This document shows positions 7,116 to 24,334 of a stretch of DNA of 64,000 nt, one piece after another; within the stretch, counting starts at the first letter, position 1, and every line of letters begins with the position of its first letter. The DNA comes from a virus. The position numbers and the translations under genes were made by a program. The notes below the pieces were generated by a model. The model saw only the letters and a program-made list of their open reading frames with translations, was not told the origin of the DNA and ran no database searches. The stretch lies in IMG/VR virus record IMGVR_UViG_3300003155_000003; one strand, written 5' to 3'.

Positions 7116-7178
7116 CCTCAGCTATTGAAAAATAAATAATAAATTTGTTTGCTATTAAAAATAAAGTTTTTATATTTG
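7115..7178 (+). promoter_or_regulatory. early promoter P3
   Basis: ACCTCAG at 7115-7121. TTTG -33-like box near 7144. TATATTTGCAATGTGATAAT from 7171. Confidence 0.7.
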
Positions 7179-11600: not shown

Positions 11601-11654
11601 TTATTAAATAGTTTATTAATTCTTTTGCAGATATAAATATATTTCTTATATTTG
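11591..11654 (+). promoter_or_regulatory. early promoter P5
   Basis: ACCTCAG at 11591-11597, inside the last codons of the upstream gene. TTTGCA near 11625. TATATTTG at 11647-11654. Confidence 0.7.
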
Positions 11655-11688: not shown

Positions 11689-12156
11689 ATGCAAACCAAG
11701 TATTACTTAACCTTCGAACAAGTTGGAATCATTAGACGTATTCCACTTAAGGAACAGGACCCCGATATGCAGGGAATCCTAGATGCTTTCATCCAAGCCT
11801 TCAGAATTACCAATGAACTGGACGATGATGATACCGTTAATACGGTAGACCTAATCAATGCTCTTAACCATATAGATGACATTTACATTGATACAGTAGA
11901 GATTTACGAAGATGGGTTCGAAATGATTGAACAATCTATACCTTTGGGAGATGCTAGCAAATGCGTAAGTAATCTCTTACAGATTGTTCAATACAACGAT
12001 GCCTTTGATTTAGCTGCTAATAATCTTGCTCTTGAGATTAAAAACAGTGTAAGATTCCATTGGAGACAACTTAACCCAGGTTCTTCAACTCCTGAACCCG
12101 AGTTCATAAATCAATTCTACAAAGAAGTCATTAACCGTTTAAAAACAAAAATATAA
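11689..12156 (+). CDS. small acidic hypothetical protein
   Basis: 155 aa, D/E-rich, 35 nt downstream of promoter box 11647-11654. Confidence 0.55.
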   Translation: MQTKYYLTFEQVGIIRRIPLKEQDPDMQGILDAFIQAFRITNELDDDDTVNTVDLINALNHIDDIYIDTVEIYEDGFEMIEQSIPLGDASKCVSNLLQIVQYNDAFDLAANNLALEIKNSVRFHWRQLNPGSSTPEPEFINQFYKEVINRLKTKI

Positions 12157-12587
12157 TGCTAAAAATCGTATTTACCTCAGAAGACAATGAAAACTCTATG
12201 TTCGGCATAGAGGAATTCCCTATCTCAGCAGAACATGCCTCACAATTAATGCGAGGCGATATGTGCATAGAGAGGTTCTTGAACGATAACCTAAATGCTC
12301 CTGATGACATTTCTCGATTCAAAGGCCTTCTCCTAGAAGGAGATACCATTGACCATGTTACAGTTGCTATCAAATTTGAACCAGAATCCGATGTCAAAGA
12401 AGACATTAAAAAGCATCTGGTTAATGAACTATGGGAAACCATATATGATACTCTTTATAGCTCAAAGGATACCATAACCCAGGAGACTATAGAAATGCTT
12501 CATTCCAATATCGATGCTTTCTACAAACAAGAAGTTACCCGGGAAGTAAAGCCATTCAAAAAGAAGAAACCTTCTTATCAGAGTTAA
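12156..12587 (+). CDS. small acidic hypothetical protein
   Basis: The start overlaps the upstream stop (TAATG). D/E-rich. A terminator follows at 12600-12628. Confidence 0.55.
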   Translation: MLKIVFTSEDNENSMFGIEEFPISAEHASQLMRGDMCIERFLNDNLNAPDDISRFKGLLLEGDTIDHVTVAIKFEPESDVKEDIKKHLVNELWETIYDTLYSSKDTITQETIEMLHSNIDAFYKQEVTREVKPFKKKKPSYQS

Positions 12588-12599
12588 CAAATCAATCAA

Positions 12600-12628
12600 A
12601 AGGCAGTCAATCCAACTGCCTTTTCTTG
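12600..12628 (+). terminator. rho-independent terminator
   Basis: AAGGCAGT-caatccaa-ACTGCCTT followed by TTTCTTG. Confidence 0.75.
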
Positions 12629-12636
12629 TATGTAGA

Positions 12637-12700
12637 ACCTCAGCTATATTAAAATAATTGCATGAATAAAGTAATATTTAAAATAAAATGCTTATATTTG
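12637..12700 (+). promoter_or_regulatory. early promoter P6
   Basis: ACCTCAG at 12637-12643. TATATTTGTAGTG from 12693. Confidence 0.7.
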
Positions 12701-12726
12701 TAGTGTAATAATTAAATAATAAAAAT

Positions 12727-13107
12727 ATGAAAACAACAACATCTAAATCCTCCATCCAGAACTTAGAAGAGGTACTTCAAAGATTCATTGCTAACAAAAA
12801 CACTTTCTCCCTCTGTAATGGAGAAAAGGAAAACCTAAAGGCTAACTTATACGAGTTACTTAGTAAGTTATACGATAACTATCAACTTGCCTGCATTGAT
12901 ATCAATCAAATCTGGGTATACGAAACTTGCTATTATACATTTACATTTGAAAGCCTGGTTACAGTAGACCGACCAAGAGAAAACATCATTGCCGATGGCT
13001 GCATACGATTTATGCAAAATTTTACCGATGGTGACGGTATCTTTATCTCATTCACCAAGCTGGATAAAAATCATTGGGTTTACCAACTTAACTTCAGAAT
13101 ATCATGA
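12727..13107 (+). CDS. hypothetical protein
   Basis: 126-aa ORF 27 nt downstream of promoter box 12693-12700. Confidence 0.55.
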   Translation: MKTTTSKSSIQNLEEVLQRFIANKNTFSLCNGEKENLKANLYELLSKLYDNYQLACIDINQIWVYETCYYTFTFESLVTVDRPRENIIADGCIRFMQNFTDGDGIFISFTKLDKNHWVYQLNFRIS

Positions 13108-13286
13108 ACGAAGAAGAATTAAAATCTCTGGCCTTACAGTTACATAAGGCACAGATACAAGAATATCCCTGGGTCTCAGCAGACCCAGAGGATGCTGAAT
13201 CCTATATTAGGACTTACGGAGATACTAACGTACACTTGTACTACGATTATTTACTTGCTAACGGAATAGGAGAAGTAACGGAATAG
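13104..13286 (+). CDS. small acidic hypothetical protein
   Basis: ATGA start/stop overlap with the upstream gene. 60 aa. Confidence 0.5.
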   Translation: MNEEELKSLALQLHKAQIQEYPWVSADPEDAESYIRTYGDTNVHLYYDYLLANGIGEVTE

Positions 13287-13299
13287 GAGAAGTAGAATT

Positions 13300-13722
13300 A
13301 TGAAAATCAGAGCTATCTTAGAAACAGAAACAATGGACCCTGACTTCAGGGAACCATTCTTAAATGGTATGCCATTTGACATTACAGAATCAACGTTTGA
13401 TAGAATTGTACGCTATGCTTCAGGATGTACCGATGTTCAACAACCAGATGTAATTGCCATGGTTATTCAACATTCTTTGGATAACCGTAAAGAGTTATCA
13501 GAATTACTTGACATATGTAATCATACTACACAAATGAGAGTACTCATACCAGTACCAATCTCTTCAATTACCTTTATCAATCAGTACCAAAATACTCTTA
13601 AAAAGGCATTAAAGGAGAGAATCAAAGGAACACTGGATGGCCTATCAAAAGAACAACGTGCAGAACTCCTTAATGAGGTACTTAATGAAACTTTAAATGA
13701 GGGTTCCCTTAACGACGATTAA
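13300..13722 (+). CDS. small acidic hypothetical protein
   Basis: 140-aa ORF. A 9-bp-stem hairpin follows at 13746-13782. Confidence 0.55.
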   Translation: MKIRAILETETMDPDFREPFLNGMPFDITESTFDRIVRYASGCTDVQQPDVIAMVIQHSLDNRKELSELLDICNHTTQMRVLIPVPISSITFINQYQNTLKKALKERIKGTLDGLSKEQRAELLNEVLNETLNEGSLNDD

Positions 13723-13782
13723 CCAGTTGTTTTCATATCTATCCCAGAGGCAGGACTCTAACCTAACTAAGAGCCTGCCTCT

Positions 13783-13826
13783 ACCTCAGTTATATTTGCA
13801 TATATTATTTATTATTCTTATCTTTG
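13783..13826 (+). promoter_or_regulatory. early promoter P7 (tandem -7-like boxes)
   Basis: ACCTCAG at 13783-13789. TATATTTG at 13791-13798 and TATCTTTG at 13819-13826. Confidence 0.6.
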
Positions 13827-13873
13827 TAGTGAGAAATAAAAATATATTTATTCATTTTAAAATAGACAACAAC

Positions 13874-14299
13874 ATGGTTAATCTTTACAAACTCACCAAC
13901 TTACTTGAATCTGGGATGACAATATTCCAGCTCAATCAATGGAAAAACGAAGGTATCTGGTATCCAATTACTCAATACAAAAAGCCTTCAAACGAAATTG
14001 AGGTAGTCACCAACCTATTTATCCCAATCGATACGGAAACACAACGTTATCACATTCAATTAACTGCTAACTATGATGCTAGCGAAATGGATGAATGGAA
14101 ACGATTCCTAGAGGATAACCAATGGAAGCTATACCCATTACTCAAAAACATCATGGATGTATTCTTGCCACATTCAGATTATGGATATCGAATCCTATAT
14201 ACCTTATACCCGGAAGGATTCATATCAGTACTTGCTGAAGAATTACCTGCTGAACCCTACATACCCTTGAATCAACAAATTAAATCAGAGGAGGACTAA
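13874..14299 (+). CDS. small acidic hypothetical protein
   Basis: The track start at 13697 would read through a hairpin and two promoter boxes. The first ATG after the box at 13819-13826 is 13874 (MVNLYKLTN...). Confidence 0.55.
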   Translation: MVNLYKLTNLLESGMTIFQLNQWKNEGIWYPITQYKKPSNEIEVVTNLFIPIDTETQRYHIQLTANYDASEMDEWKRFLEDNQWKLYPLLKNIMDVFLPHSDYGYRILYTLYPEGFISVLAEELPAEPYIPLNQQIKSEED

Positions 14300-14301
14300 C
14301 T

Positions 14302-14622
14302 ATGACACCATCAAAGACTTATCTTAAATTCCAAGAGACAGGGTCCAAAGAGGACCTTGATACTCTTAATGGGTATTTACTCAGACTGCAACAAATCTCG
14401 GTTATCCTAAATGGAGATACAGAACTTTCCAATGAGGAAGAGAACAAACTATATGACGAAGACGAAACCCTAACAGACAAAGTCTTACGATTATTATTTG
14501 GAGATACATTCTTTACCTTCATTGCCGAATACAACCTCGATGGATACGATTCCTGGGAGGATACCGTCGAAGACTTAGTAGAAGACCTATGGATGACCTA
14601 TTGGGAATTACATGAAGCCTAA
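14302..14622 (+). CDS. small acidic hypothetical protein
   Basis: 106 aa, very D/E-rich. Confidence 0.55.
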   Translation: MTPSKTYLKFQETGSKEDLDTLNGYLLRLQQISVILNGDTELSNEEENKLYDEDETLTDKVLRLLFGDTFFTFIAEYNLDGYDSWEDTVEDLVEDLWMTYWELHEA

Positions 14623-14736
14623 TATTATACTTATCTTAGTCATGGGAGGGATTATCCTAATAATGGGTGCATCCTCCCATCCTACTAGCAAAGAACCTTT
14701 AACTTATGAGAATACTCATTGCTTAATATTAATAAT

Positions 14737-14967
14737 ATGCTAGAACAGTCCAAATTTTTAGTATCCTTCGATTGCCAAAACGAAAAGTTCTGCGAAGAAT
14801 TAATCATAACCTATAGAACTGAGGAACTAAGGCCATACTTAATATTCCCAAGGGTAAAACTAAACCCCAACCATCTTCATGTATATCATACTAAAAGGAT
14901 AATCTCAGAACTTATAGGTATGCCATACTCTTCCATCGAAATAGTTGACCTTATAAGGCTCCAGTAA
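14737..14967 (+). CDS. hypothetical protein
   Basis: The track start at 14719 is TTG. The first ATG is 14737 (MLEQSKF...). Confidence 0.45.
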   Translation: MLEQSKFLVSFDCQNEKFCEELIITYRTEELRPYLIFPRVKLNPNHLHVYHTKRIISELIGMPYSSIEIVDLIRLQ

Positions 14968-15011
14968 GTAATCGGGGTTATTGCATATTTAAAATATTAT
15001 TCTTATATTTG
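14958..15011 (+). promoter_or_regulatory. early promoter P8
   Basis: Variant GCTCCAG at 14958-14964. TTGCAT at 14981. TATATTTG at 15004-15011. Confidence 0.65.
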
Positions 15012-15035
15012 CATAAACATTTAAAAATAGACGTT

Positions 15036-15281
15036 ATGAATGAAGAAAGTAAATTAATCGAATTATTTAAAAAATACCCCGGAATTGCTGCACGCATACG
15101 GAGGTCATTTGCTTATCACTACGACCAAATCCAACGGGAAATCGAAGCCGAGGTTGCTACAATTAACAAAGACGATGCTGCAACCATTATCGATTATACT
15201 ACCGAATATATGGAGGAATCCATGGGTTGGCCTGATGCCGATGACCAAACAACATTCAACAATCAAATCGCTAACAATTAA
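15036..15281 (+). CDS. small acidic hypothetical protein
   Basis: The track start at 15009 is the TTG of the -7 box. The first ATG is 15036 (MNEESKL...). Confidence 0.5.
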   Translation: MNEESKLIELFKKYPGIAARIRRSFAYHYDQIQREIEAEVATINKDDAATIIDYTTEYMEESMGWPDADDQTTFNNQIANN

Positions 15282-15307
15282 CATTAACCAATAAAACTTA
15301 TAACATC

Positions 15308-15814
15308 ATGACAACATTAAAATCTACTTCAATCCTTGCTTCAATCCTTGCTCAAAACCCTTATCACATTATCTCCATCCAAGGTCAAATGCCTATGTCA
15401 CATGCTCAAAATACATATGACTTCGAAATTGCCGAGGATGACCCACATTACGAGGAGATATCGGATTATTCACTCGAAATGCTCTGGGTATATACCTATG
15501 CCGATAAGGAATCCCTGGAACTTGACCTAATGGAAATCCTCAATCAAATGGATTTGCTCAGAGGCTGCGATGACCAATACTTCGATTATAACGTAGACGA
15601 AGTAGACATGGTACTCTACGGTGCAACTCTTATCCTTGAACAGGAAAAATACAAACCACTTATCATGGAAAAATTCCAATACTACAAGGATAATTTCAAC
15701 GAGGAAGAACATGCCGAGGAAATCGAATATTACCTTAACTTTCTCGAAAAACCAGAAACTCTTTACACTTTCACTGAAAATACTATCAACTTTTTCAAAT
15801 CCCTTATCAAATGA
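15308..15814 (+). CDS. small acidic hypothetical protein
   Basis: 168 aa, D/E/Y-rich. Confidence 0.55.
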   Translation: MTTLKSTSILASILAQNPYHIISIQGQMPMSHAQNTYDFEIAEDDPHYEEISDYSLEMLWVYTYADKESLELDLMEILNQMDLLRGCDDQYFDYNVDEVDMVLYGATLILEQEKYKPLIMEKFQYYKDNFNEEEHAEEIEYYLNFLEKPETLYTFTENTINFFKSLIK

Positions 15815-16074
15815 GAACTAAACTTATAATCCTAACATCAATTGCCATGGCTCTAGTAGTCATGGCTTTCCCTACCAATAAATTCCAACCTAAAACAGTA
15901 TGGGAACACTACTGCAAGTATACATTGCACATACACCCATCACAGGCAACCGAGGACCAATATGATTACTTCCTTGATTGCTGGTCAGGAGATGACGAAT
16001 ATACTTATCTCTATGACTACTACGAGAACAAATACCCAGAATATAATCACCAACTAAAACATTACGGAAAATGA
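15811..16074 (+). CDS. small membrane-anchored hypothetical protein
   Basis: ATGA overlap with the upstream gene. N-terminal hydrophobic segment LIILTSIAMALVVMAF. Confidence 0.5.
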   Translation: MRTKLIILTSIAMALVVMAFPTNKFQPKTVWEHYCKYTLHIHPSQATEDQYDYFLDCWSGDDEYTYLYDYYENKYPEYNHQLKHYGK

Positions 16075-16319
16075 AACTAAGAATCACAACTCTGGTAATC
16101 GTAGAAGAAGGCCAAGTCCAAGATATCTACCATTCATTCGAAGATGACCAAGACAAGGCTTATCAAGAAATCATAAACCAGGTAAATGCTGAATATGGAG
16201 ACGGAGGAGTATTACAATTCTATTCTCTACAGGGTATCAAAGAATACTTCGAAATCGTACATATAGAGACCCAAGAACTAACTCCAACAGGATTTAAAAC
16301 AGCCATCTTAGACCAATGA
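16071..16319 (+). CDS. small acidic hypothetical protein
   Basis: ATGA overlap with the upstream gene. 82 aa. Confidence 0.5.
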   Translation: MKLRITTLVIVEEGQVQDIYHSFEDDQDKAYQEIINQVNAEYGDGGVLQFYSLQGIKEYFEIVHIETQELTPTGFKTAILDQ

Positions 16320-16492
16320 AAAAGAAGAACAAAGACATAATATACATACCAGGCCAAGATACATGGTCTGAACATTTCCCTACTCCAGGTAAACTAAGAC
16401 CCAGTAACTTCGGACATATGTTCTGTGAACCTAACTCCCAATTCAACAAGCTCCTCCGTACCCAGAACAAACTAAAATCCAAAAGAAAATGA
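16316..16492 (+). CDS. 58-aa hypothetical protein (below the ORF-track cut-off)
   Basis: My own translation is MKKKNKDIIYIPGQDTWSEHFPTPGKLRPSNFGHMFCEPNSQFNKLLRTQNKLKSKRK. ATGA overlaps occur at both ends, at 16316-16319 and 16489-16492. Confidence 0.4.
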   Translation: MKKKNKDIIYIPGQDTWSEHFPTPGKLRPSNFGHMFCEPNSQFNKLLRTQNKLKSKRK

Positions 16493-16677
16493 TACCACTA
16501 ACCTTAATATTAATCCTAGCCATAGGGATATCCCATATCCTAATCCGAAATGAAACCAGGTACCTAATAAGAATAAAGTACCCCACCAACAAACAAAAAT
16601 ACCAATACTACCTAACACAATTAATATACCTACTAATCCTAATCATCCTAGAAACCTTAATCCTAAGATACCTCTAA
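16489..16677 (+). CDS. possible 62-aa hydrophobic protein (doubtful)
   Basis: ATGA-coupled to the upstream ORF. However, it lies wholly in a G-depleted, CCTA-repeat tract, which by itself would translate as L/I-rich sequence. Confidence 0.3.
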   Translation: MIPLTLILILAIGISHILIRNETRYLIRIKYPTNKQKYQYYLTQLIYLLILIILETLILRYL

Positions 16678-16715
16678 CCCACCAAACAAAAACAAATATC
16701 AAAATAAATACTAAA

Positions 16716-16751
16716 GCCCAGTATGAACAATAAACAAAATCATACTGGGCC
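16716..16751 (+). other. 11-bp perfect-stem hairpin without T-run
   Basis: GCCCAGTATGA at 16716-16726 pairs with TCATACTGGGC at 16741-16751. The loop is 14 nt. Confidence 0.6.
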
Positions 16752-16980
16752 TAACTATGTTACATAACTAAGATACAAATACCCCAATATCACCAATCAT
16801 ATAATACTAATCAATATACATATAACTAATTTGAAGGCCTTCCGGGGGTGTTGGGATTAAGGCAAACTTCTAGGCCTAGCCTACCTCTCACTATACAACA
16901 CCCCTACTCTATAGCTACCTAACACATCAGTCTCAAGGTCCTAAGGCTATATAACCAATTGCCTAAAAGGCACCTAATAA

Positions 16981-17270
16981 AGGCCATTCAAGGTACCTAA
17001 ATCCGATAAATCCTAGACCCCTAATGGCCGCTTTTTATATAAAATTAGGTACCTTTTTGTCGGATTGGGGCCCCTAAATTTAATAAATCCGAGGTAATTT
17101 TAGGCCATTCAAGGTACCTAAAAACTAGTAACTATGTTATTAATGGCCCTTGTAATTAGTTAAAAAGAAACTTTAGATTGCTAGAAGAGATACTTCTTTT
17201 GAGAGAGTATTGATAGAGAGATACGTAATATTAGTATTAGAGCTATAGTACATTATCCATTAATGGCTTC
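16981..17270. repeat. degenerate tandem repeat of about 120 bp (about 2.5 units) containing a perfect 21-nt direct repeat
   Basis: AGGCCATTCAAGGTACCTAAA occurs at 16981-17001 and 17102-17122. TAATGGC(C) occurs at 17022, 17141 and 17261. The spacings are 119-121 bp. Confidence 0.75.
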
Positions 17271-17329
17271 AGTAGGATTTATAAAAATTGATTAGGATTT
17301 TGCTATATTATTTATTATTCTTATATTTG
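17266..17329 (+). promoter_or_regulatory. early promoter P9
   Basis: Variant GCTTCAG at 17266-17272. TTTGCT at 17299. TATATTTGCAATGTGATAAT from 17322, identical to P3 over 20 nt. Confidence 0.7.
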
Positions 17330-17375
17330 CAATGTGATAATAAACAAGAATATTAATTTTTAAATCCTATATCCT

Positions 17376-17732
17376 ATGCGTAGTATTAAACCCAACTTAG
17401 TTAAAACTTGGTTCACTAAAAACCAAGCAATCCTAAACATTGATTCTCAGGTAGATGAGAAAGGAGTTCTTGAGTATCTTTCCTTCCTAATAGACGAAGG
17501 ATATCTACACATCCCAGAATTTACCTTCAAGGCATATAATTGCTCAGAACTAGCTCCCGGTCGTATAGTACATAATTTCTATTATGAACTTTCTAATAGA
17601 ACTCTTACAGAAGCCCAAATAAACTCTATACTTGCCGAATGTCCTTTACTATTCGATGATGGTTCTCAACCTAAGCCTGCCTATACCGCTTATCTGGGTT
17701 CATTATACATTACCCTTATTGCAGAAGCCTAA
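17376..17732 (+). CDS. hypothetical protein
   Basis: 118-aa ORF 47 nt downstream of promoter box 17322-17329. A terminator follows at 17754-17789. Confidence 0.55.
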   Translation: MRSIKPNLVKTWFTKNQAILNIDSQVDEKGVLEYLSFLIDEGYLHIPEFTFKAYNCSELAPGRIVHNFYYELSNRTLTEAQINSILAECPLLFDDGSQPKPAYTAYLGSLYITLIAEA

Positions 17733-17753
17733 TCGCTAACTTAGGTACACCTT

Positions 17754-17789
17754 AAGCCCATGCCTATCTAAGGTACTGGGCTTTTTCTT
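17754..17789 (+). terminator. hairpin + T-run
   Basis: AAGCCCA at 17754-17760 pairs with TGGGCTT at 17777-17783, followed by TTTCTT. Confidence 0.55.
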
Positions 17790-18159
17790 AAGCCTTTCTA
17801 TGTAGGCCATCATGGGACTTACTAAGGCTTACCATAGGCTTAACTACAGACCTATAGGCCATAGTACTCTATAGACTCCATGGATGGCCCTGGGCATTAT
17901 AGGATTACCTGCTAGTCACCTAATGGCCTTTATATATGATAATATACAGATAATAACTACCGGACTGTATGGGGCCTCCAAATTTCTAAAGTGGTACCTA
18001 TACCAACCCCTTCTATATCCTACCTTATATCCATCAATATACCCCTATCTAATGCCCACAACCATGCCCACCTTTCAAACCTCTAAAACCTACTTGCAAA
18101 TTTTTCATACGAAATTATTAAAAATAATTTTTAAAATATTTCTCGAAAATTTTTCTATA

Positions 18160-18195
18160 AATGTTTTGCAGATTAAAATATATTTTTTATCTTTG
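18160..18195 (+). promoter_or_regulatory. island promoter P10 (no CCTCAG box)
   Basis: TTTGCA near 18165. TATCTTTG at 18188-18195. Confidence 0.5.
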
Positions 18196-18261
18196 TATTG
18201 TTGAAAAAGCAAAGAGATATTTAAAATTTTGATTAACAATTTTTAAAAAGAAAATTCTCTG

Positions 18262-18297
18262 AAAATTTTGCTAATTAAAATATAAATTGTATCTTTG
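18262..18297 (+). promoter_or_regulatory. island promoter P11 (no CCTCAG box)
   Basis: TTTGCT near 18267. TATCTTTG at 18290-18297. Drives ORF 18439. Confidence 0.55.
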
Positions 18298-18352
18298 TAA
18301 TGTAATCAAAAAGCGATACTTGATATATTGAAACAATATAAAATTAATTTAT

Positions 18353-18438: not shown

Positions 18439-18918
18439 ATGGAAGAATTAAAAAATGTAGTAGTTGAAAACAAAGAAGTTTCTAACAACAAAGTAAACAA
18501 AGTTAGTGCTAATAAAGCAAAAGCACAAGCAAAAGCAAATAACACTATTAAATTATCAGTTGATTCGATTTTTAAAAATCTAAACGAAAAAACAAACGGA
18601 CTTTTAAAAACTTCTTTAGGAAAGAAAACAGAAATTTATATTGAATCTTTGTTTTCAGAACTAAATGAAAAACAAAAAAAAGCATATCGAAAAAAGTTAA
18701 GAAATACAACTTTTTCTTTGCTTGATTCGATTTGCAAAGCGAAAGAAGAAAAGAAACAAAATGAACTAAAAACACTTGTTTCTGCATTTACAGAATTTTA
18801 TAAGCAAGTCTACAAAGTGAATGATTTTTCTTTTGCTTCTATTGCAAGCGAAAATACAAAGGACACAAAAAAAGAAGTTCTAACAAAAGGTTTGAATATT
18901 GTTAAGAATTTCAAGTAA
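18439..18918 (+). CDS. hypothetical Lys-rich protein in AT-rich island
   Basis: 159-aa ORF with its own promoter (18290-17-type box at 18290-18297) and a perfect 10-bp-stem terminator at 18929-18956. Composition is visibly more AT-rich than the flanking sequence. Confidence 0.55.
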   Translation: MEELKNVVVENKEVSNNKVNKVSANKAKAQAKANNTIKLSVDSIFKNLNEKTNGLLKTSLGKKTEIYIESLFSELNEKQKKAYRKKLRNTTFSLLDSICKAKEEKKQNELKTLVSAFTEFYKQVYKVNDFSFASIASENTKDTKKEVLTKGLNIVKNFK

Positions 18919-18928
18919 CTAACTGCAA

Positions 18929-18956
18929 AGGGAAAGATTAAATCTTTCCCTTTTTA
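18929..18956 (+). terminator. rho-independent terminator
   Basis: AGGGAAAGAT-taa-ATCTTTCCCT followed by TTTTT. Confidence 0.85.
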
Positions 18957-18969
18957 AAATTTTAAAGAT

Positions 18970-19260
18970 ATGAACAAAGAACTATTAAAGAAATTTTTAA
19001 ATCATTCGATTTCTAAGAGTGACGGAAAGATAAATATTTCCGTTTTAGATATGCAAAGCGAATCTTTGCAAGACGAAGAAGAAACAGAAAAGCGTTTAAA
19101 TGAAACGTTTGAAACATTAGATAAAATGCTTTTGCAAGACGGACACAAAAAAATAATTGAATCAGATTATTATAATATCTATTCAAGAAAAGACGATAGT
19201 AGCGAATTATTTGTTTTGCAAAACAAAGATACATGTGTTACTTTGATTGAATTAATTTAA
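18970..19260 (+). CDS. hypothetical acidic protein in AT-rich island
   Basis: 96-aa ORF followed by a 9-bp-stem bidirectional terminator at 19268-19307. Confidence 0.55.
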   Translation: MNKELLKKFLNHSISKSDGKINISVLDMQSESLQDEEETEKRLNETFETLDKMLLQDGHKKIIESDYYNIYSRKDDSSELFVLQNKDTCVTLIELI

Positions 19261-19267
19261 AATTGAA

Positions 19268-19307
19268 AGGGACAAACATTTTTATTTGTCCCTTACTTTT
19301 TATTTTT
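19268..19307. terminator. bidirectional terminator between convergent units
   Basis: AGGGACAAA at 19268-19276 pairs with TTTGTCCCT at 19285-19293. T-runs occur on both strands. Confidence 0.8.
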
Positions 19308-22363: not shown

Positions 22364-22710
22364 TGAAGGTAATTTACAACAAATTCATCCCTTTCAAGGG
22401 ATACAAGGCAATGAACCTATTCGGAATTGTCTTTGTGAGAAAAGGTGCTAAGTTTGATACTTATGATTACAACCATGAGCACATTCATCTCAAACAAATG
22501 CAAGAGATGTTGTGGATATTCTACTACTTATGGTATGCAATCGAGTACTTAATCATCATGTGCTTTGCCAAATGGGATAAACAGAATGAAAGATATCATG
22601 ATGTAAGTTTCGAAGAAGAAGCCCACAATAATGATAAGAATCTGAGCTATCTGGAAGACCGTAAGCCATTTGCTTGGATTAAGTACATTAAATTGAGAAG
22701 CTACAAATAG
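22363..22710 (+). CDS. HExxH-motif membrane protein coupled to the endolysin
   Basis: The start shares a base with the endolysin stop (TAATG). It carries the motif NHEHIHLKQMQE, a central hydrophobic stretch MLWIFYYLWYAIEYLIIMCFA, and a second acidic block FEEEAHNND. Confidence 0.55.
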   Translation: MKVIYNKFIPFKGYKAMNLFGIVFVRKGAKFDTYDYNHEHIHLKQMQEMLWIFYYLWYAIEYLIIMCFAKWDKQNERYHDVSFEEEAHNNDKNLSYLEDRKPFAWIKYIKLRSYK

Positions 22711-23279
22711 GGTTTAGTTATAGGGTCTATACCCTTAACTATTTTAGATATTACGGATATAGGCATCTTGAATTTATTACTAAGTTCTTTTAGTAATACT
22801 TTGGGATGCCTCCGTTTATATCTGAAAACTCTTAATTTTAATCTATTAGAGTATTTAGAAGTAGGAGAATTTTGACCTATTTTACCAAAAGTTCTGTTAT
22901 ATGAGTATCTGCCATCTCTAATACATTGTTGCATATTCTCAGCTTGTGTACCCCAATATAAATTATCTACATGATTATTTAATGGGTTATTATCTTTGTG
23001 ACATACACAAGGTTTATTCTCAGGATTAGGTATATAAGCTAAAGCTACCAACCTTGATACTTTTAGAGAACGATTTATATCTTTAACACATACATGAACT
23101 TTTGGGCAAGGGTATTTACCTTTACGATTAGTGTGTATTGATATTTTTAATTCTTTCCAATCTCCATTTCGTTTTTGGAATACCTTACCACTACGCCCAT
23201 CTATGTATTCATCTTTTCTGAATACTTGACCTTGTTTACTTACAAAATAACAAGGTAAACCAGGAATATTTTCTTTCAT
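22701..23279 (-). CDS. HNH homing endonuclease (NUMOD4 + HNH_3-like)
   Basis: The N-terminal block IPGLPCYFVSKQGQVFRK is NUMOD4-like. VSRLVALAYIPNPENKPCVCHKDNNPLNNHVDNLYWGTQAENMQ is an HNH core. It is antisense to both neighbours, and its 3' end overlaps the convergent gene by 10 nt. Confidence 0.8.
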   Translation of the reverse strand: MKENIPGLPCYFVSKQGQVFRKDEYIDGRSGKVFQKRNGDWKELKISIHTNRKGKYPCPKVHVCVKDINRSLKVSRLVALAYIPNPENKPCVCHKDNNPLNNHVDNLYWGTQAENMQQCIRDGRYSYNRTFGKIGQNSPTSKYSNRLKLRVFRYKRRHPKVLLKELSNKFKMPISVISKIVKGIDPITKPYL

Positions 23280-23317: not shown

Positions 23318-24334
23318 ATGGAAAAGTTTAATTTATTGGGAGTAAGCGCAGGTCAAGGTGCTTTATTATTCCCTTTTATAAAATCTAAAAAGTACAAGCT
23401 CCTGGGTAATATTGAACCAAGAGGAGTTTTTCATACAAATTGCGAAAGTCAGTGGAAAGCCAATTTTAAGGATATACCGTTCTACAAAGGATACTGTTTA
23501 CAAGAGTTTGATGAGAAAGTAGATATCATAATCTCTTCTCCAGACTGTGGAGCATCATCAATTATGAGACTTTCAAAGGTTAAAGAATTGGGTAAGCCCA
23601 AAGATAACCGAAGTTTAAATCTAGTAATAGAAGGAATCAATTATTACAAGCCTAAGATTTTTCTTATAGAAAACCTACCTCGTTTGCTATCTCTCTTACC
23701 CAATGAATACCTTCAGGAAGCCTTTAAAGACTATAAACTTATTTTTCATGAAAGAAGCGTTTCCGACTATGGGAACTCCCAAGTATCAAGGAAGCGTTTA
23801 GTTATCGTTGGAGTGCATAAGAAAGCCGGTAAGAAATACTTGAATGCTTTTAATGAAGTATTCCAAGTAAAAACTCCAACAATTACTAGAAATCTACTTA
23901 ACGATTACCAGAATCCATTGAATTATAACATTCCTTTGGATAAAACCCTGGCAATGTATGATTATCGGAAGCTTCCTAAAAAGAAGAATCTAACCGTTAA
24001 AAAGATTCAGCTATTGTGGAATAGTGACTTCAAGAATGAAAAGAAATGGCCCATAAAGACTGCTAAGATGAGTACTCTCCCAGGAGTGTATCGATTAGAG
24101 TTAGATAAAGCTCCTCTAACTTTAAGACCTGCTGATAGACAGTTCCGACCCGATGGTTACCCTCTTGGGATTTTAGATTTCAAAGCAATTATGGGATTCC
24201 CTAAAGCCTACAAGATTTTCATGGATGAAGGCAATTACCTTTACTGGCTTAACAAGGCAAGGTATACCATAGCTAAAGGGTCGGTCTACGAAATTTCAAT
24301 ATGGTTCAAACGTTGTATTAAGAAGGTTTCATGA
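23318..24334 (+). CDS. DNA (cytosine-5)-methyltransferase
   Basis: The motif order matches C5-MTases: LGVSAGQGAL (I), IIISSPDCGASS (IV, atypical PDC in place of PPC), IFLIENLPRL (VI), QVSRKRLVIVG (VIII). Confidence 0.75.
   Translation: MEKFNLLGVSAGQGALLFPFIKSKKYKLLGNIEPRGVFHTNCESQWKANFKDIPFYKGYCLQEFDEKVDIIISSPDCGASSIMRLSKVKELGKPKDNRSLNLVIEGINYYKPKIFLIENLPRLLSLLPNEYLQEAFKDYKLIFHERSVSDYGNSQVSRKRLVIVGVHKKAGKKYLNAFNEVFQVKTPTITRNLLNDYQNPLNYNIPLDKTLAMYDYRKLPKKKNLTVKKIQLLWNSDFKNEKKWPIKTAKMSTLPGVYRLELDKAPLTLRPADRQFRPDGYPLGILDFKAIMGFPKAYKIFMDEGNYLYWLNKARYTIAKGSVYEISIWFKRCIKKVS

Follow-up and report, generated by a model that had tools for sequence, protein, structure and literature searches.

What is the role of a non-coding spacer of ~620 nt (16678-17298) that separates the last gene of an early operon from the next promoter of a tailed phage? 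The phage is represented by a 64,000-nt stretch of DNA (IMG/VR virus record IMGVR_UViG_3300003155_000003; hereafter the window), which encodes TerL, portal, protease, major head protein and tape measure at 25-51 kb. An earlier note, made from the letters of the window, had described 16489-17330 as its largest non-coding stretch and as structure that the genes do not explain, and had proposed a replication origin, a packaging or terminus region, a nucleoprotein regulatory hub or a structured RNA. The literal features that it listed (hairpin, palindromes and repeats) can all be located in the DNA, and the claim of real structure holds, with the spacer retained in more than 120 related contigs of two sub-clades and containing significantly clustered short motifs. 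We tentatively interpret the spacer as a terminator-to-promoter boundary, composed of a Rho-type tail and hairpins, which may double as a linker for cassette exchange, by analogy with the promoter-early stem-loops (PeSLs) of T4-like phages.

Three sets of relatives were compared with the window, namely 33 loci retrieved via the downstream gene, 92 IMG/VR stretches that each contain one copy of the exact 21-mer AATCCTAGACCCCTAATGGCC (17009-17029), and 36 loci of a second, more distant clade (clade 2). Clade 2 came to light via the loose pattern CCGGGGGT-N30-60-ACTATAC, the other matches of which lie mostly in unrelated contigs. The enrichment of motifs was tested against local dinucleotide-preserving shuffles.

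The open reading frames (ORFs) between 11689 and 16677 all lie on the + strand and several overlap at their start and stop codons. The last of them (16489-16677, +) overlaps the preceding ORF at an ATGA and encodes a hydrophobic membrane protein of 62 amino acids (aa), homologues of which, with the reading frame preserved, are found by tblastn in 12 loci. All eight CCTA motifs of this ORF stand in the phase NNC-CTA (ATC-CTA or TAC-CTA), and CTA provides 10 of its 15 Leu codons. Thus, the CCTA repeats arise from Ile/Tyr-Leu codon pairs, and the left half of the G-poor, CCTA-rich tract is accounted for by the 62-aa gene. The CCTA saturation reported earlier does not extend to 16489-16830, where nine copies are observed and 5.8 ± 1.9 expected (75 of 1000 shuffles reach nine) and where a single copy falls in the non-coding part (16678-16830), the other eight being those of the ORF. 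Rather, the enrichment is confined to 16831-17160, which contains 12 CCTA (4.9 expected), eight CCTAA (1.9 expected) and seven GGCC (2.3 expected), numbers that were attained in 0, 0 and 3 of 1000 shuffles, respectively. Likewise, the first 189 nt of the supposed largest non-coding stretch are coding, whereas the description stands for the remaining ~620 nt, and the absence of any ORF of at least 60 aa from 16678-17375 extends to ORFs of at least 40 aa. Throughout 12000-17000, the coding strand of the operon that starts at 11624 has more C than G, with the GC skew falling to between -0.4 and -0.68 in 200-nt windows; the late genes show the opposite bias, with G exceeding C on their coding strand.

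The operon upstream of the spacer and the unit downstream of it are each headed by a promoter of Bacteroidetes type. Exact matches to TTTG-N19-TAnnTTTG are located at 7148, 11624, 17299, 18165 and 18267, all on the + strand, and no promoter of this type is found between 11624 and 17299 or on either strand of 16680-17290, which makes the spacer the 3' end of the operon that starts at 11624. The promoter module at its right end (17255-17375, +) comprises an upstream element, a core and a leader that reaches to the ATG at 17376. Within the core (17299-17329, +), the -33 motif TTTG is located at 17299-17302 and the -7 motif TATATTTG at 17322-17329. The upstream element reads TAATGGCTTCAG in this genome and GGCCTCAG in relatives, and a CCTCAG upstream element is common to the promoters at 708, 7148 and 11624. 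The early promoter at which a repeat array had been said to end is thus present at 17299-17329, but the TAATGGC at 17261, counted as the last member of that array, belongs to the upstream element of the promoter. DNA searches for near as well as distant matches in 50,697 phage records found no close relative of the window, and the sole match from the interval was the promoter itself, 17300-17365 matching intergenic DNA in four B. fragilis phages. In nearly all contigs, the promoter lies 250-650 nt downstream of the conserved core of the spacer and is followed by at least three unrelated leaders and genes.

Between the 62-aa gene and the first of the GGCC motifs extends an untranslated, A/C-rich and G-poor tail (16678-16832, +) with a rut-like composition. 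The depletion of G that had been noticed on the plus strand from 16.49 to 16.83 kb is borne out, since G makes up only 6% of 16489-16830; the longest G-free run is 72 nt and starts at 16579, and no 150-nt window of the 64 kb is more strongly skewed towards C over G than 16561-16710. The 78 nt of 16750-16827 contain 18 C and 2 G, which places them in the top 0.2% among all 78-nt windows. This composition is shared by the relatives, with the corresponding 160 nt containing ~5% G and 22-27% C in 121 sequences (86 of clade 1 and 35 of clade 2), and is kept in one example pair of clade-1 and clade-2 tails that are roughly 60% identical. RhoTermPredict looks for a 78-nt window with C>G and a pause hairpin no more than 150 nt further on (PMC6407284). 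The spacer offers an untranslated window of this kind and GC-cored hairpins at 16871-83 and 16960-72, a correspondence that concerns composition, the 3-nt loops of both hairpins being shorter than the 4-8 nt that the program seeks. From this composition we infer that the tail may be a loading site for Rho.

Within the tail resides hairpin H1 (+), in which the arms 16716-16726 and 16740-16750 form a perfect stem of 11 bp around a 13-nt loop, with a predicted folding energy of -17.8 kcal/mol, in agreement with the perfect hairpin described before at 16716-16751. The stem is unchanged in 39 of 40 distinct clade-1 sequences, while the length of the loop varies; the structure conservation index is 0.87, and with an invariant stem no covariation is observable. 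In clade 2, the 5' arm of H1 is absent.

The tail is followed by a conserved mosaic of 16833-17030 (+), defined by the alignment of relatives and referred to here as element E. Its invariant blocks on the + strand are located at 16842-49 (CCGGGGGT), 16890-97 (ACTATACA), 16913-27, 16958-70, 16991-17004 (GGGTACCTAAATCC) and 17009-29, and a hypervariable block of ~40 nt (16850-16889, +), with about seven discrete alleles, lies between CCGGGGGT and ACTATAC. Across 82 sequences, conservation of at least 95% is seen for H1 with its 3' flank, CCGGGGGT, ACTATACA, AGCTATCTAACACAT, ATTGCCTAAAAGG, GGGTACCTAAATCC and the 21-mer at 17009-17029, for which the value is biased because this 21-mer was used as a search key. 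The median identity to relatives amounts to 86-87% for 16833-17030, 77% for the adjacent genes (16071-16677) and 98% for the downstream gene. Element E is present in single copy, as judged by the one exact 21-mer (17009-17029) in each of the 92 IMG/VR stretches, and a diverged but collinear version is found in the 36 clade-2 loci. At 16935-16950 (columns ~287-310 of alignment A1), the sequences adopt one of two states, AGGTCCTAAGGCTAT or ATAGCCTTAGGTCAT, which are identical at 14 of 16 positions when one is reverse-complemented; this polymorphism looks like a short inversion.

The right part of element E and the DNA beyond it can fold into a series of stem-loops. Two of these are nested within 16965-17058 (+): the inner one pairs GGCCATT (16982-88) with AATGGCC (17023-29) at -12.1 kcal/mol and is followed by a T run at 17032-36, and the outer one pairs 16965-78 with 17044-57, the 3' arm being AGGTACC, at -22.7 kcal/mol and is followed by a T run at 17054-58. 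In relatives, the nested 5' arm is still an imperfect reverse complement of ACCCCTAATGGCC, and its GGCC and GGG(G)T ends are retained. Further downstream, TCGGATT and AATCCGA are predicted to pair around GGGGCCCC (17059-17092, +; -7.6 kcal/mol), GGCCATT (17103-09) with AATGGCC (17142-48) at -11.4 kcal/mol, and AGAAG with CTTCT in a weak, partly conserved stem-loop that precedes TTTT (17182-17201, +; -4.3 kcal/mol). Three of the GC-cored stem-loops of the spacer lead into U runs. The GGCC-centred palindromes of the earlier note (GAAGGCCTTC at 16833, TAGGCCTA at 16871 and GGGGCCCC at 17067) are genuine, as are its three GGTACC sites at 16992, 17048 and 17113, to which a fourth at 16559 can be added; most of these GGCC and GGTACC "palindromes" are hairpin arms, with A runs on their 5' side and T runs on their 3' side. 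Canonical hairpin-plus-U terminators are present elsewhere in the window at 17754-17790, 18927-18957 and 19266-19300, and the phage thus employs terminators of this type. MT121964, a distant relative with a TerL 72% identical to that of the window, has a 600-nt gap at the equivalent place, where textbook AAGGCC...GGCCTT hairpins with T runs come first, then a promoter-like sequence and a gene homologous to the low-GC one at 18439.

In the reading that we favour, the 62-aa membrane-protein gene would close the operon begun at the 11624 promoter, and once ribosomes leave the RNA, host Rho may load onto the C/A-rich, unstructured, untranslated tail with its conserved hairpin. RNA polymerase would then pause and terminate within a zone of 200-370 nt that contains the GC-cored (GGCC, GGTACC) stem-loops, three of them with U runs, and the next Bacteroidetes-type promoter, with its upstream element and core, would begin the following unit. 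Recombination at the conserved blocks would swap cassettes, and a homing-endonuclease-like gene could insert there. Several properties of the spacer weigh against termination of this kind. On the + strand, H1 is not followed by a U run, and only on the - strand does a T-rich run come after it. The loops of the putative terminators are long (22-34 nt), as expected of poor intrinsic terminators, with the hairpins that end at 17029 and 17057 being followed by T5 but having loops of at least 34 nt, and a simple scan for consensus terminators found none on the + strand of the spacer. The C residues of the tail are only moderately regular in spacing, the longest chain of C 11-13 nt apart having four members, and the G-poor bias also spans ~5 kb of upstream coding sequence, so that the composition is not peculiar to the untranslated tail. 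Finally, the most conserved bases of element E lie in "loops" (GGGTACCTAAATCC, AATCCTAGACCCC) rather than in stems, which is unlike a plain terminator and points to sequence-specific recognition.

The second aspect of the boundary, its use as a linker, relates to a recombination or indel joint at 17030-17045, which is marked by a jump in identity and by indels among relatives. To the left of ~17031, identity to many relatives is 70-84%, and to the right it is 96-98%. Most relatives have at this joint an A/T-only quasi-palindrome of 20-30 nt and additional motif copies, along with ~70 nt without counterpart in the window; where they continue after AATGGCC with 20-30 nt of A/T only, the present genome has just TTTTTATATAAAATTA. 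The shortened form, from which the A/T palindrome and ~70 nt of the right arm have been lost, occurs in 5 of 93 sequences (this genome and four others). In 8 of 84 relatives, 17033-17255 is replaced by a gene for a 141-aa protein (for example L020:3039-3464; also L044 and L046), which has a weak NUMOD4/HNH-like N-terminus (phrog_6086, E = 0.0036) and a helix-turn-helix-like C-terminus and is, by sequence, probably the relic of a freestanding homing endonuclease; apart from this weak HNH-like match, Pfam, PHROG and PDB sequence searches with the neighbouring proteins were uninformative. The 5' variants of element E are freely combined with its 3' variants, and the spacer sits where close relatives differ by the insertion, deletion or replacement of genes. 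As the gene cassettes on either side evolve fast, we suggest that the conserved blocks of the spacer serve also as homologous joints, the mosaicism being indicative of recombination at the spacer.

The architecture is similar to, but distinct from, that of several known systems. In T4-like phages, modular shuffling is mediated by PeSLs, which are small motifs composed of terminator and promoter (PMC2839356, PMC4122927). As in PeSLs, a non-coding stem-loop is combined with an early promoter in a region of ORFan early genes, the promoter belongs to a family (708, 7148, 11624 and 17299) with CCTCAG, and the unit lies exactly at joints of small-gene insertion, deletion and replacement. Unlike PeSLs, to which it has no sequence relationship, the spacer belongs to another phage family, uses a Bacteroidetes -33/-7 promoter and, at ~620 nt, is not a small motif, containing the single-copy element E, which does not recur at the other promoters. 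The tail resembles Rho-dependent terminators such as lambda nutR-tR1 in that ~80 nt of RNA without ribosomes, rich in C and poor in G, would end an early operon, with GC-rich hairpins within 150 nt. It differs from nutR-tR1 in the only moderately regular spacing of C, in the extension of the bias into upstream coding DNA and in that no nut-like boxA or boxB was identified. The presence or absence of the 141-aa gene at one precise joint beside highly conserved DNA is reminiscent of homing-endonuclease insertion sites; in contrast to freestanding homing endonucleases, however, the resemblance of the protein is weak and lacks catalytic-motif evidence, and the window itself is without the gene.

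Much of the case for an array of binding sites had come from a perfect 21-nt direct repeat. The two copies, at 16981-17001 (+) and 17102-17122 (+), are exact, and none of 100 shuffles gave two matches; copy 2 lies within the stem-loop formed by 17103-09 and 17142-48. Further copies were found neither with up to three mismatches nor, in a degenerate search, with up to seven. The perfect pair is restricted to this genome among 93 sequences, the other 92 sharing 6-13 nt between the two sites, usually around GGGGTACCTAAA, and is most simply explained by recent conversion between two similar sites. The copy-2 site is nearly invariant in those relatives that have its module, and copy 1 probably arose by conversion from copy 2. 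The proposed period of 119-121 bp over ~2.5 units does not withstand this comparison: it derives from the one 21-mer pair together with TAATGGCC at 17022 and 17141 and TAATGGC at 17261, Tandem Repeats Finder reports no tandem repeat of ~120 bp, and AATGGCC is spaced by 44 and 187 nt in many relatives, unlike in this genome. Iterated, phased binding sites are likewise not borne out, with so little shared between the two sites of the 92 relatives, the third TAATGGC assigned to the promoter and the CCTA-rich tract being largely a gene. A phage attachment site (attP) was rejected, the 21-mer core being missing from 185,579 species-representative genomes and no integrase match occurring among the scanned ORFs of the window.

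The conservation of short blocks in element E could have a different meaning, either at the level of DNA or of RNA. If element E and the A/T-only core that follows it in most relatives were a DNA site for protein assembly, that is, a replication origin or a landing pad for a phage regulator, which we regard as unlikely, invariant blocks of 8-21 nt separated by variable DNA would be expected, and these are present. In addition, short motifs (GGTACCTAA, AAATCCKA, ATTGCCT/AGGCAAT, GGCC-N4-GGGGT) have opposite orientations on either side of the easily melted A/T stretch, the common architecture repeating the motif set inverted beyond the A/T-only quasi-palindrome (for example CTTATTATATATAATAAG), and TAAATCC occurs in pairs 9-10 or 20 nt apart. 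The 64 kb contain four AGGTACCT, every one of them within 16558-17119, and 6 of the 22 copies of AAATCC[G/T]A lie within 370 nt (16999-17369), a density matched by none of 10,000 random placements; these candidate protein-binding sites or hairpin arms are at 16999, 17008, 17085 and 17362 on the + strand and at 17273 and 17293 on the - strand, with a 7-of-8 copy at 17060 (-). The copy number of the motifs differs among relatives, as for redundant binding sites, and the promoter is flanked by two TAGGATTT sites and one AAATCCTA site. The motifs were, however, picked after inspection of the data, direct repeats do not form an array of three or more, and the long repeat is lineage-specific. Moreover, no replication gene or recognisable DNA-binding gene is adjacent (Pfam and PHROG, larger ORFs of 1-24 kb), no DnaA box with up to one mismatch occurs in 16-18.5 kb, the large-scale minimum of the cumulative GC skew is located near 21 kb, and the A/T palindrome with ~70 nt of the right arm has been lost from this genome and 4 others of 93. 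Iteron origins such as lambda ori and plasmid oriV likewise occupy intergenic DNA in which short repeats cluster close to an A/T-only stretch and the flanks are strand-asymmetric, but here the two long-repeat copies are peculiar to this genome, and helical phasing, an initiator gene, DnaA boxes and a skew minimum are missing in addition to the lost A/T core, such that a classical iteron origin, as had been proposed, lacks most of the features that define it. The conserved core could be a nucleoprotein or regulatory site. Alternatively, 16833-17036 could specify a structured RNA of ~200 nt, either encoded as such or residing in the 3' untranslated region of the operon, closed by GGCC...GGCC and GGGGGU...ACCCC pairs and ending in a U-rich tail; this we consider very unlikely. 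The same closing helix does appear in the minimum-free-energy folds of nearly all alleles and in the consensus fold, a U-rich tail comes next in most relatives, each hypervariable allele is, as judged by eye, partly complementary to the invariant GGUACCUAAAUCC, and the polymorphism of the short inverted segment retains the pairing to UAUAGC. Yet the columns of the closing helix never vary, so that covariation cannot test the helix and none is seen, the z-scores of single sequences are only -1.7 and -2.1, and the structure conservation index is 0.39-0.44. The hypervariable alleles assort randomly with the 3' variant, as do the 5' GGCC variants with the base after the 3' GGCC, and clade 2 alters the 3' end without compensation on the 5' side. 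No Rfam family reaches the gathering threshold in the whole window (best E-value 0.044; pntA at 29.9 bits against a threshold of 54), no tRNA or tmRNA was found, no Bacteroidetes-type promoter lies upstream on either strand, and the G-poor + strand disfavours structure; the RNA suggested by the earlier note thus has neither covariation nor an Rfam match nor a promoter of its own. Strongly negative z-scores from column shuffling, obtained for every segment on both strands, reflect only the inverted repeats and were not counted in favour of an RNA. More broadly, element E, the A/T-only quasi-palindrome and the inverted motif set might together constitute an undescribed cis-acting element of a family of Bacteroidales phages that is very prevalent in the human gut, be it an origin or regulator pad or a new RNA of ~200 nt, with the hypervariable 40-nt block as its specificity determinant, a prospect that we rate as rather unlikely.

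The opposite view, that the spacer has no function beyond spacing and consists of debris from decayed small-gene cassettes and old terminators, which remain similar through recent ancestry and frequent recombination, appears quite unlikely to us. It would be in keeping with a mosaic of large indels, lineage-specific conversion and blocks that are present or absent, with TAATGGCC being readable as a stop that overlaps a start and with the presence of short frames that begin at ATGGCC, and with the identity of element E (86-87%) being lower than that of several neighbouring genes (91-98%). It is at odds with blocks of 8-21 nt that are at least 95% conserved in 82 sequences beside adjacent genes of 77% identity, with the diverged, collinear element of the second clade and with a G-poor composition that is retained despite differences in sequence. 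The ends of T7 carry arrays of short CCTAAAG-like repeats, and a generic resemblance to such repeat-rich terminal regions is the one point in favour of a packaging (pac/cos) site or physical genome end, a reading that we hold to be extremely improbable. The site is 7.5 kb from the putative position of the small-terminase gene and 8.2 kb upstream of TerL, its repeats are not conserved, and relatives assemble as circles and as contigs of twice the genome length (PMC8008677). The terminus proposed earlier therefore finds no support; contig ends cluster instead at 18149-18245 (18.15-18.25 kb), 0.8-1 kb downstream of the spacer.

The sequence of the window places the phage in a wider context. Its TerL shares 72% identity with the one from "Phage DP SC_6_H4_2017", a phage of human faeces, and related genomes measure 84-88 kb; the size of these relatives, the gene order and the long block of ORFans fit the description of the proposed family "Flandersviridae". 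Bacteroides and Parabacteroides have been inferred as hosts of this family, and its replication module is found beyond the ORFan block of ~20 kb (PMC8008677). Here, a scan of the larger ORFs of the first ~20 kb, which are all + strand, gave no Pfam or PHROG match above threshold. The phage is an uncultured gut phage of ~85 kb that probably infects Bacteroides. Two IMG/VR relatives (L009, 170,446 bp; L015, 170,751 bp) were assembled at about twice the genome length, which points to concatemeric or circular-duplicated assemblies. An HNH endonuclease gene (22701-23279, -; phrog_59, E = 1e-32) neighbours a DNA methyltransferase-like gene (23318-24334, +) immediately upstream of the terminase genes, and 33957-40175 encodes a protein of 2072 aa with phage tail-fibre repeats and a C-terminal endosialidase-chaperone (Peptidase_S74) domain.

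Downstream of the spacer, a second tract that is non-coding or contains a doubtful ORF (17733-18164) shares with 16678-17298 only words of 8-12 nt, so that no paralogy is apparent. It contains the canonical terminator AAGCCCA...TGGGCTT+TTTT (17754-17790), several TAGGCC/GGCC motifs, CCTAATGGCC at 17919 and, at 17995-18072, upstream of the next promoters, the second most C>G stretch in the window (32 C, 2 G). The ORF that spans this tract (17884-18204) enters the promoters and may not be real. The following DNA (18100-18300) is AT-rich, with a GC content of 15-19%, and harbours the tandem Bacteroidetes-type promoters at 18165 and 18267. Three IMG/VR contigs of ~85 kb (L003, L023 and L026) end at the equivalents of 18149, 18192 and 18245; they could mark a real end, or the assembly could have broken there at a repeat or at a joint that varies among strains. 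The next two genes have a low GC content of ~25% (18439-18918 and 18970-19260) and are each ended by a canonical hairpin-plus-T terminator (18927-18957 and 19266-19300, respectively). The first has a homologue in MT121964, and the second is missing in several relatives and resembles a cassette of moron type.

Phages of this kind are among the commonest in the human gut, yet ~20 kb of their genome lacks annotation and the searched collections contain no cultured representative. A boundary of the type that we favour would be an ordinary kind of element in an understudied phage, and it would not overturn current ideas. Element E is a possible diagnostic marker for the clade, and the analysis of the spacer would account for the shuffling of ORFan genes. 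Together, the boundaries, the early promoters of Bacteroidetes type and the cassette joints may serve as a first regulatory map of this dark region.

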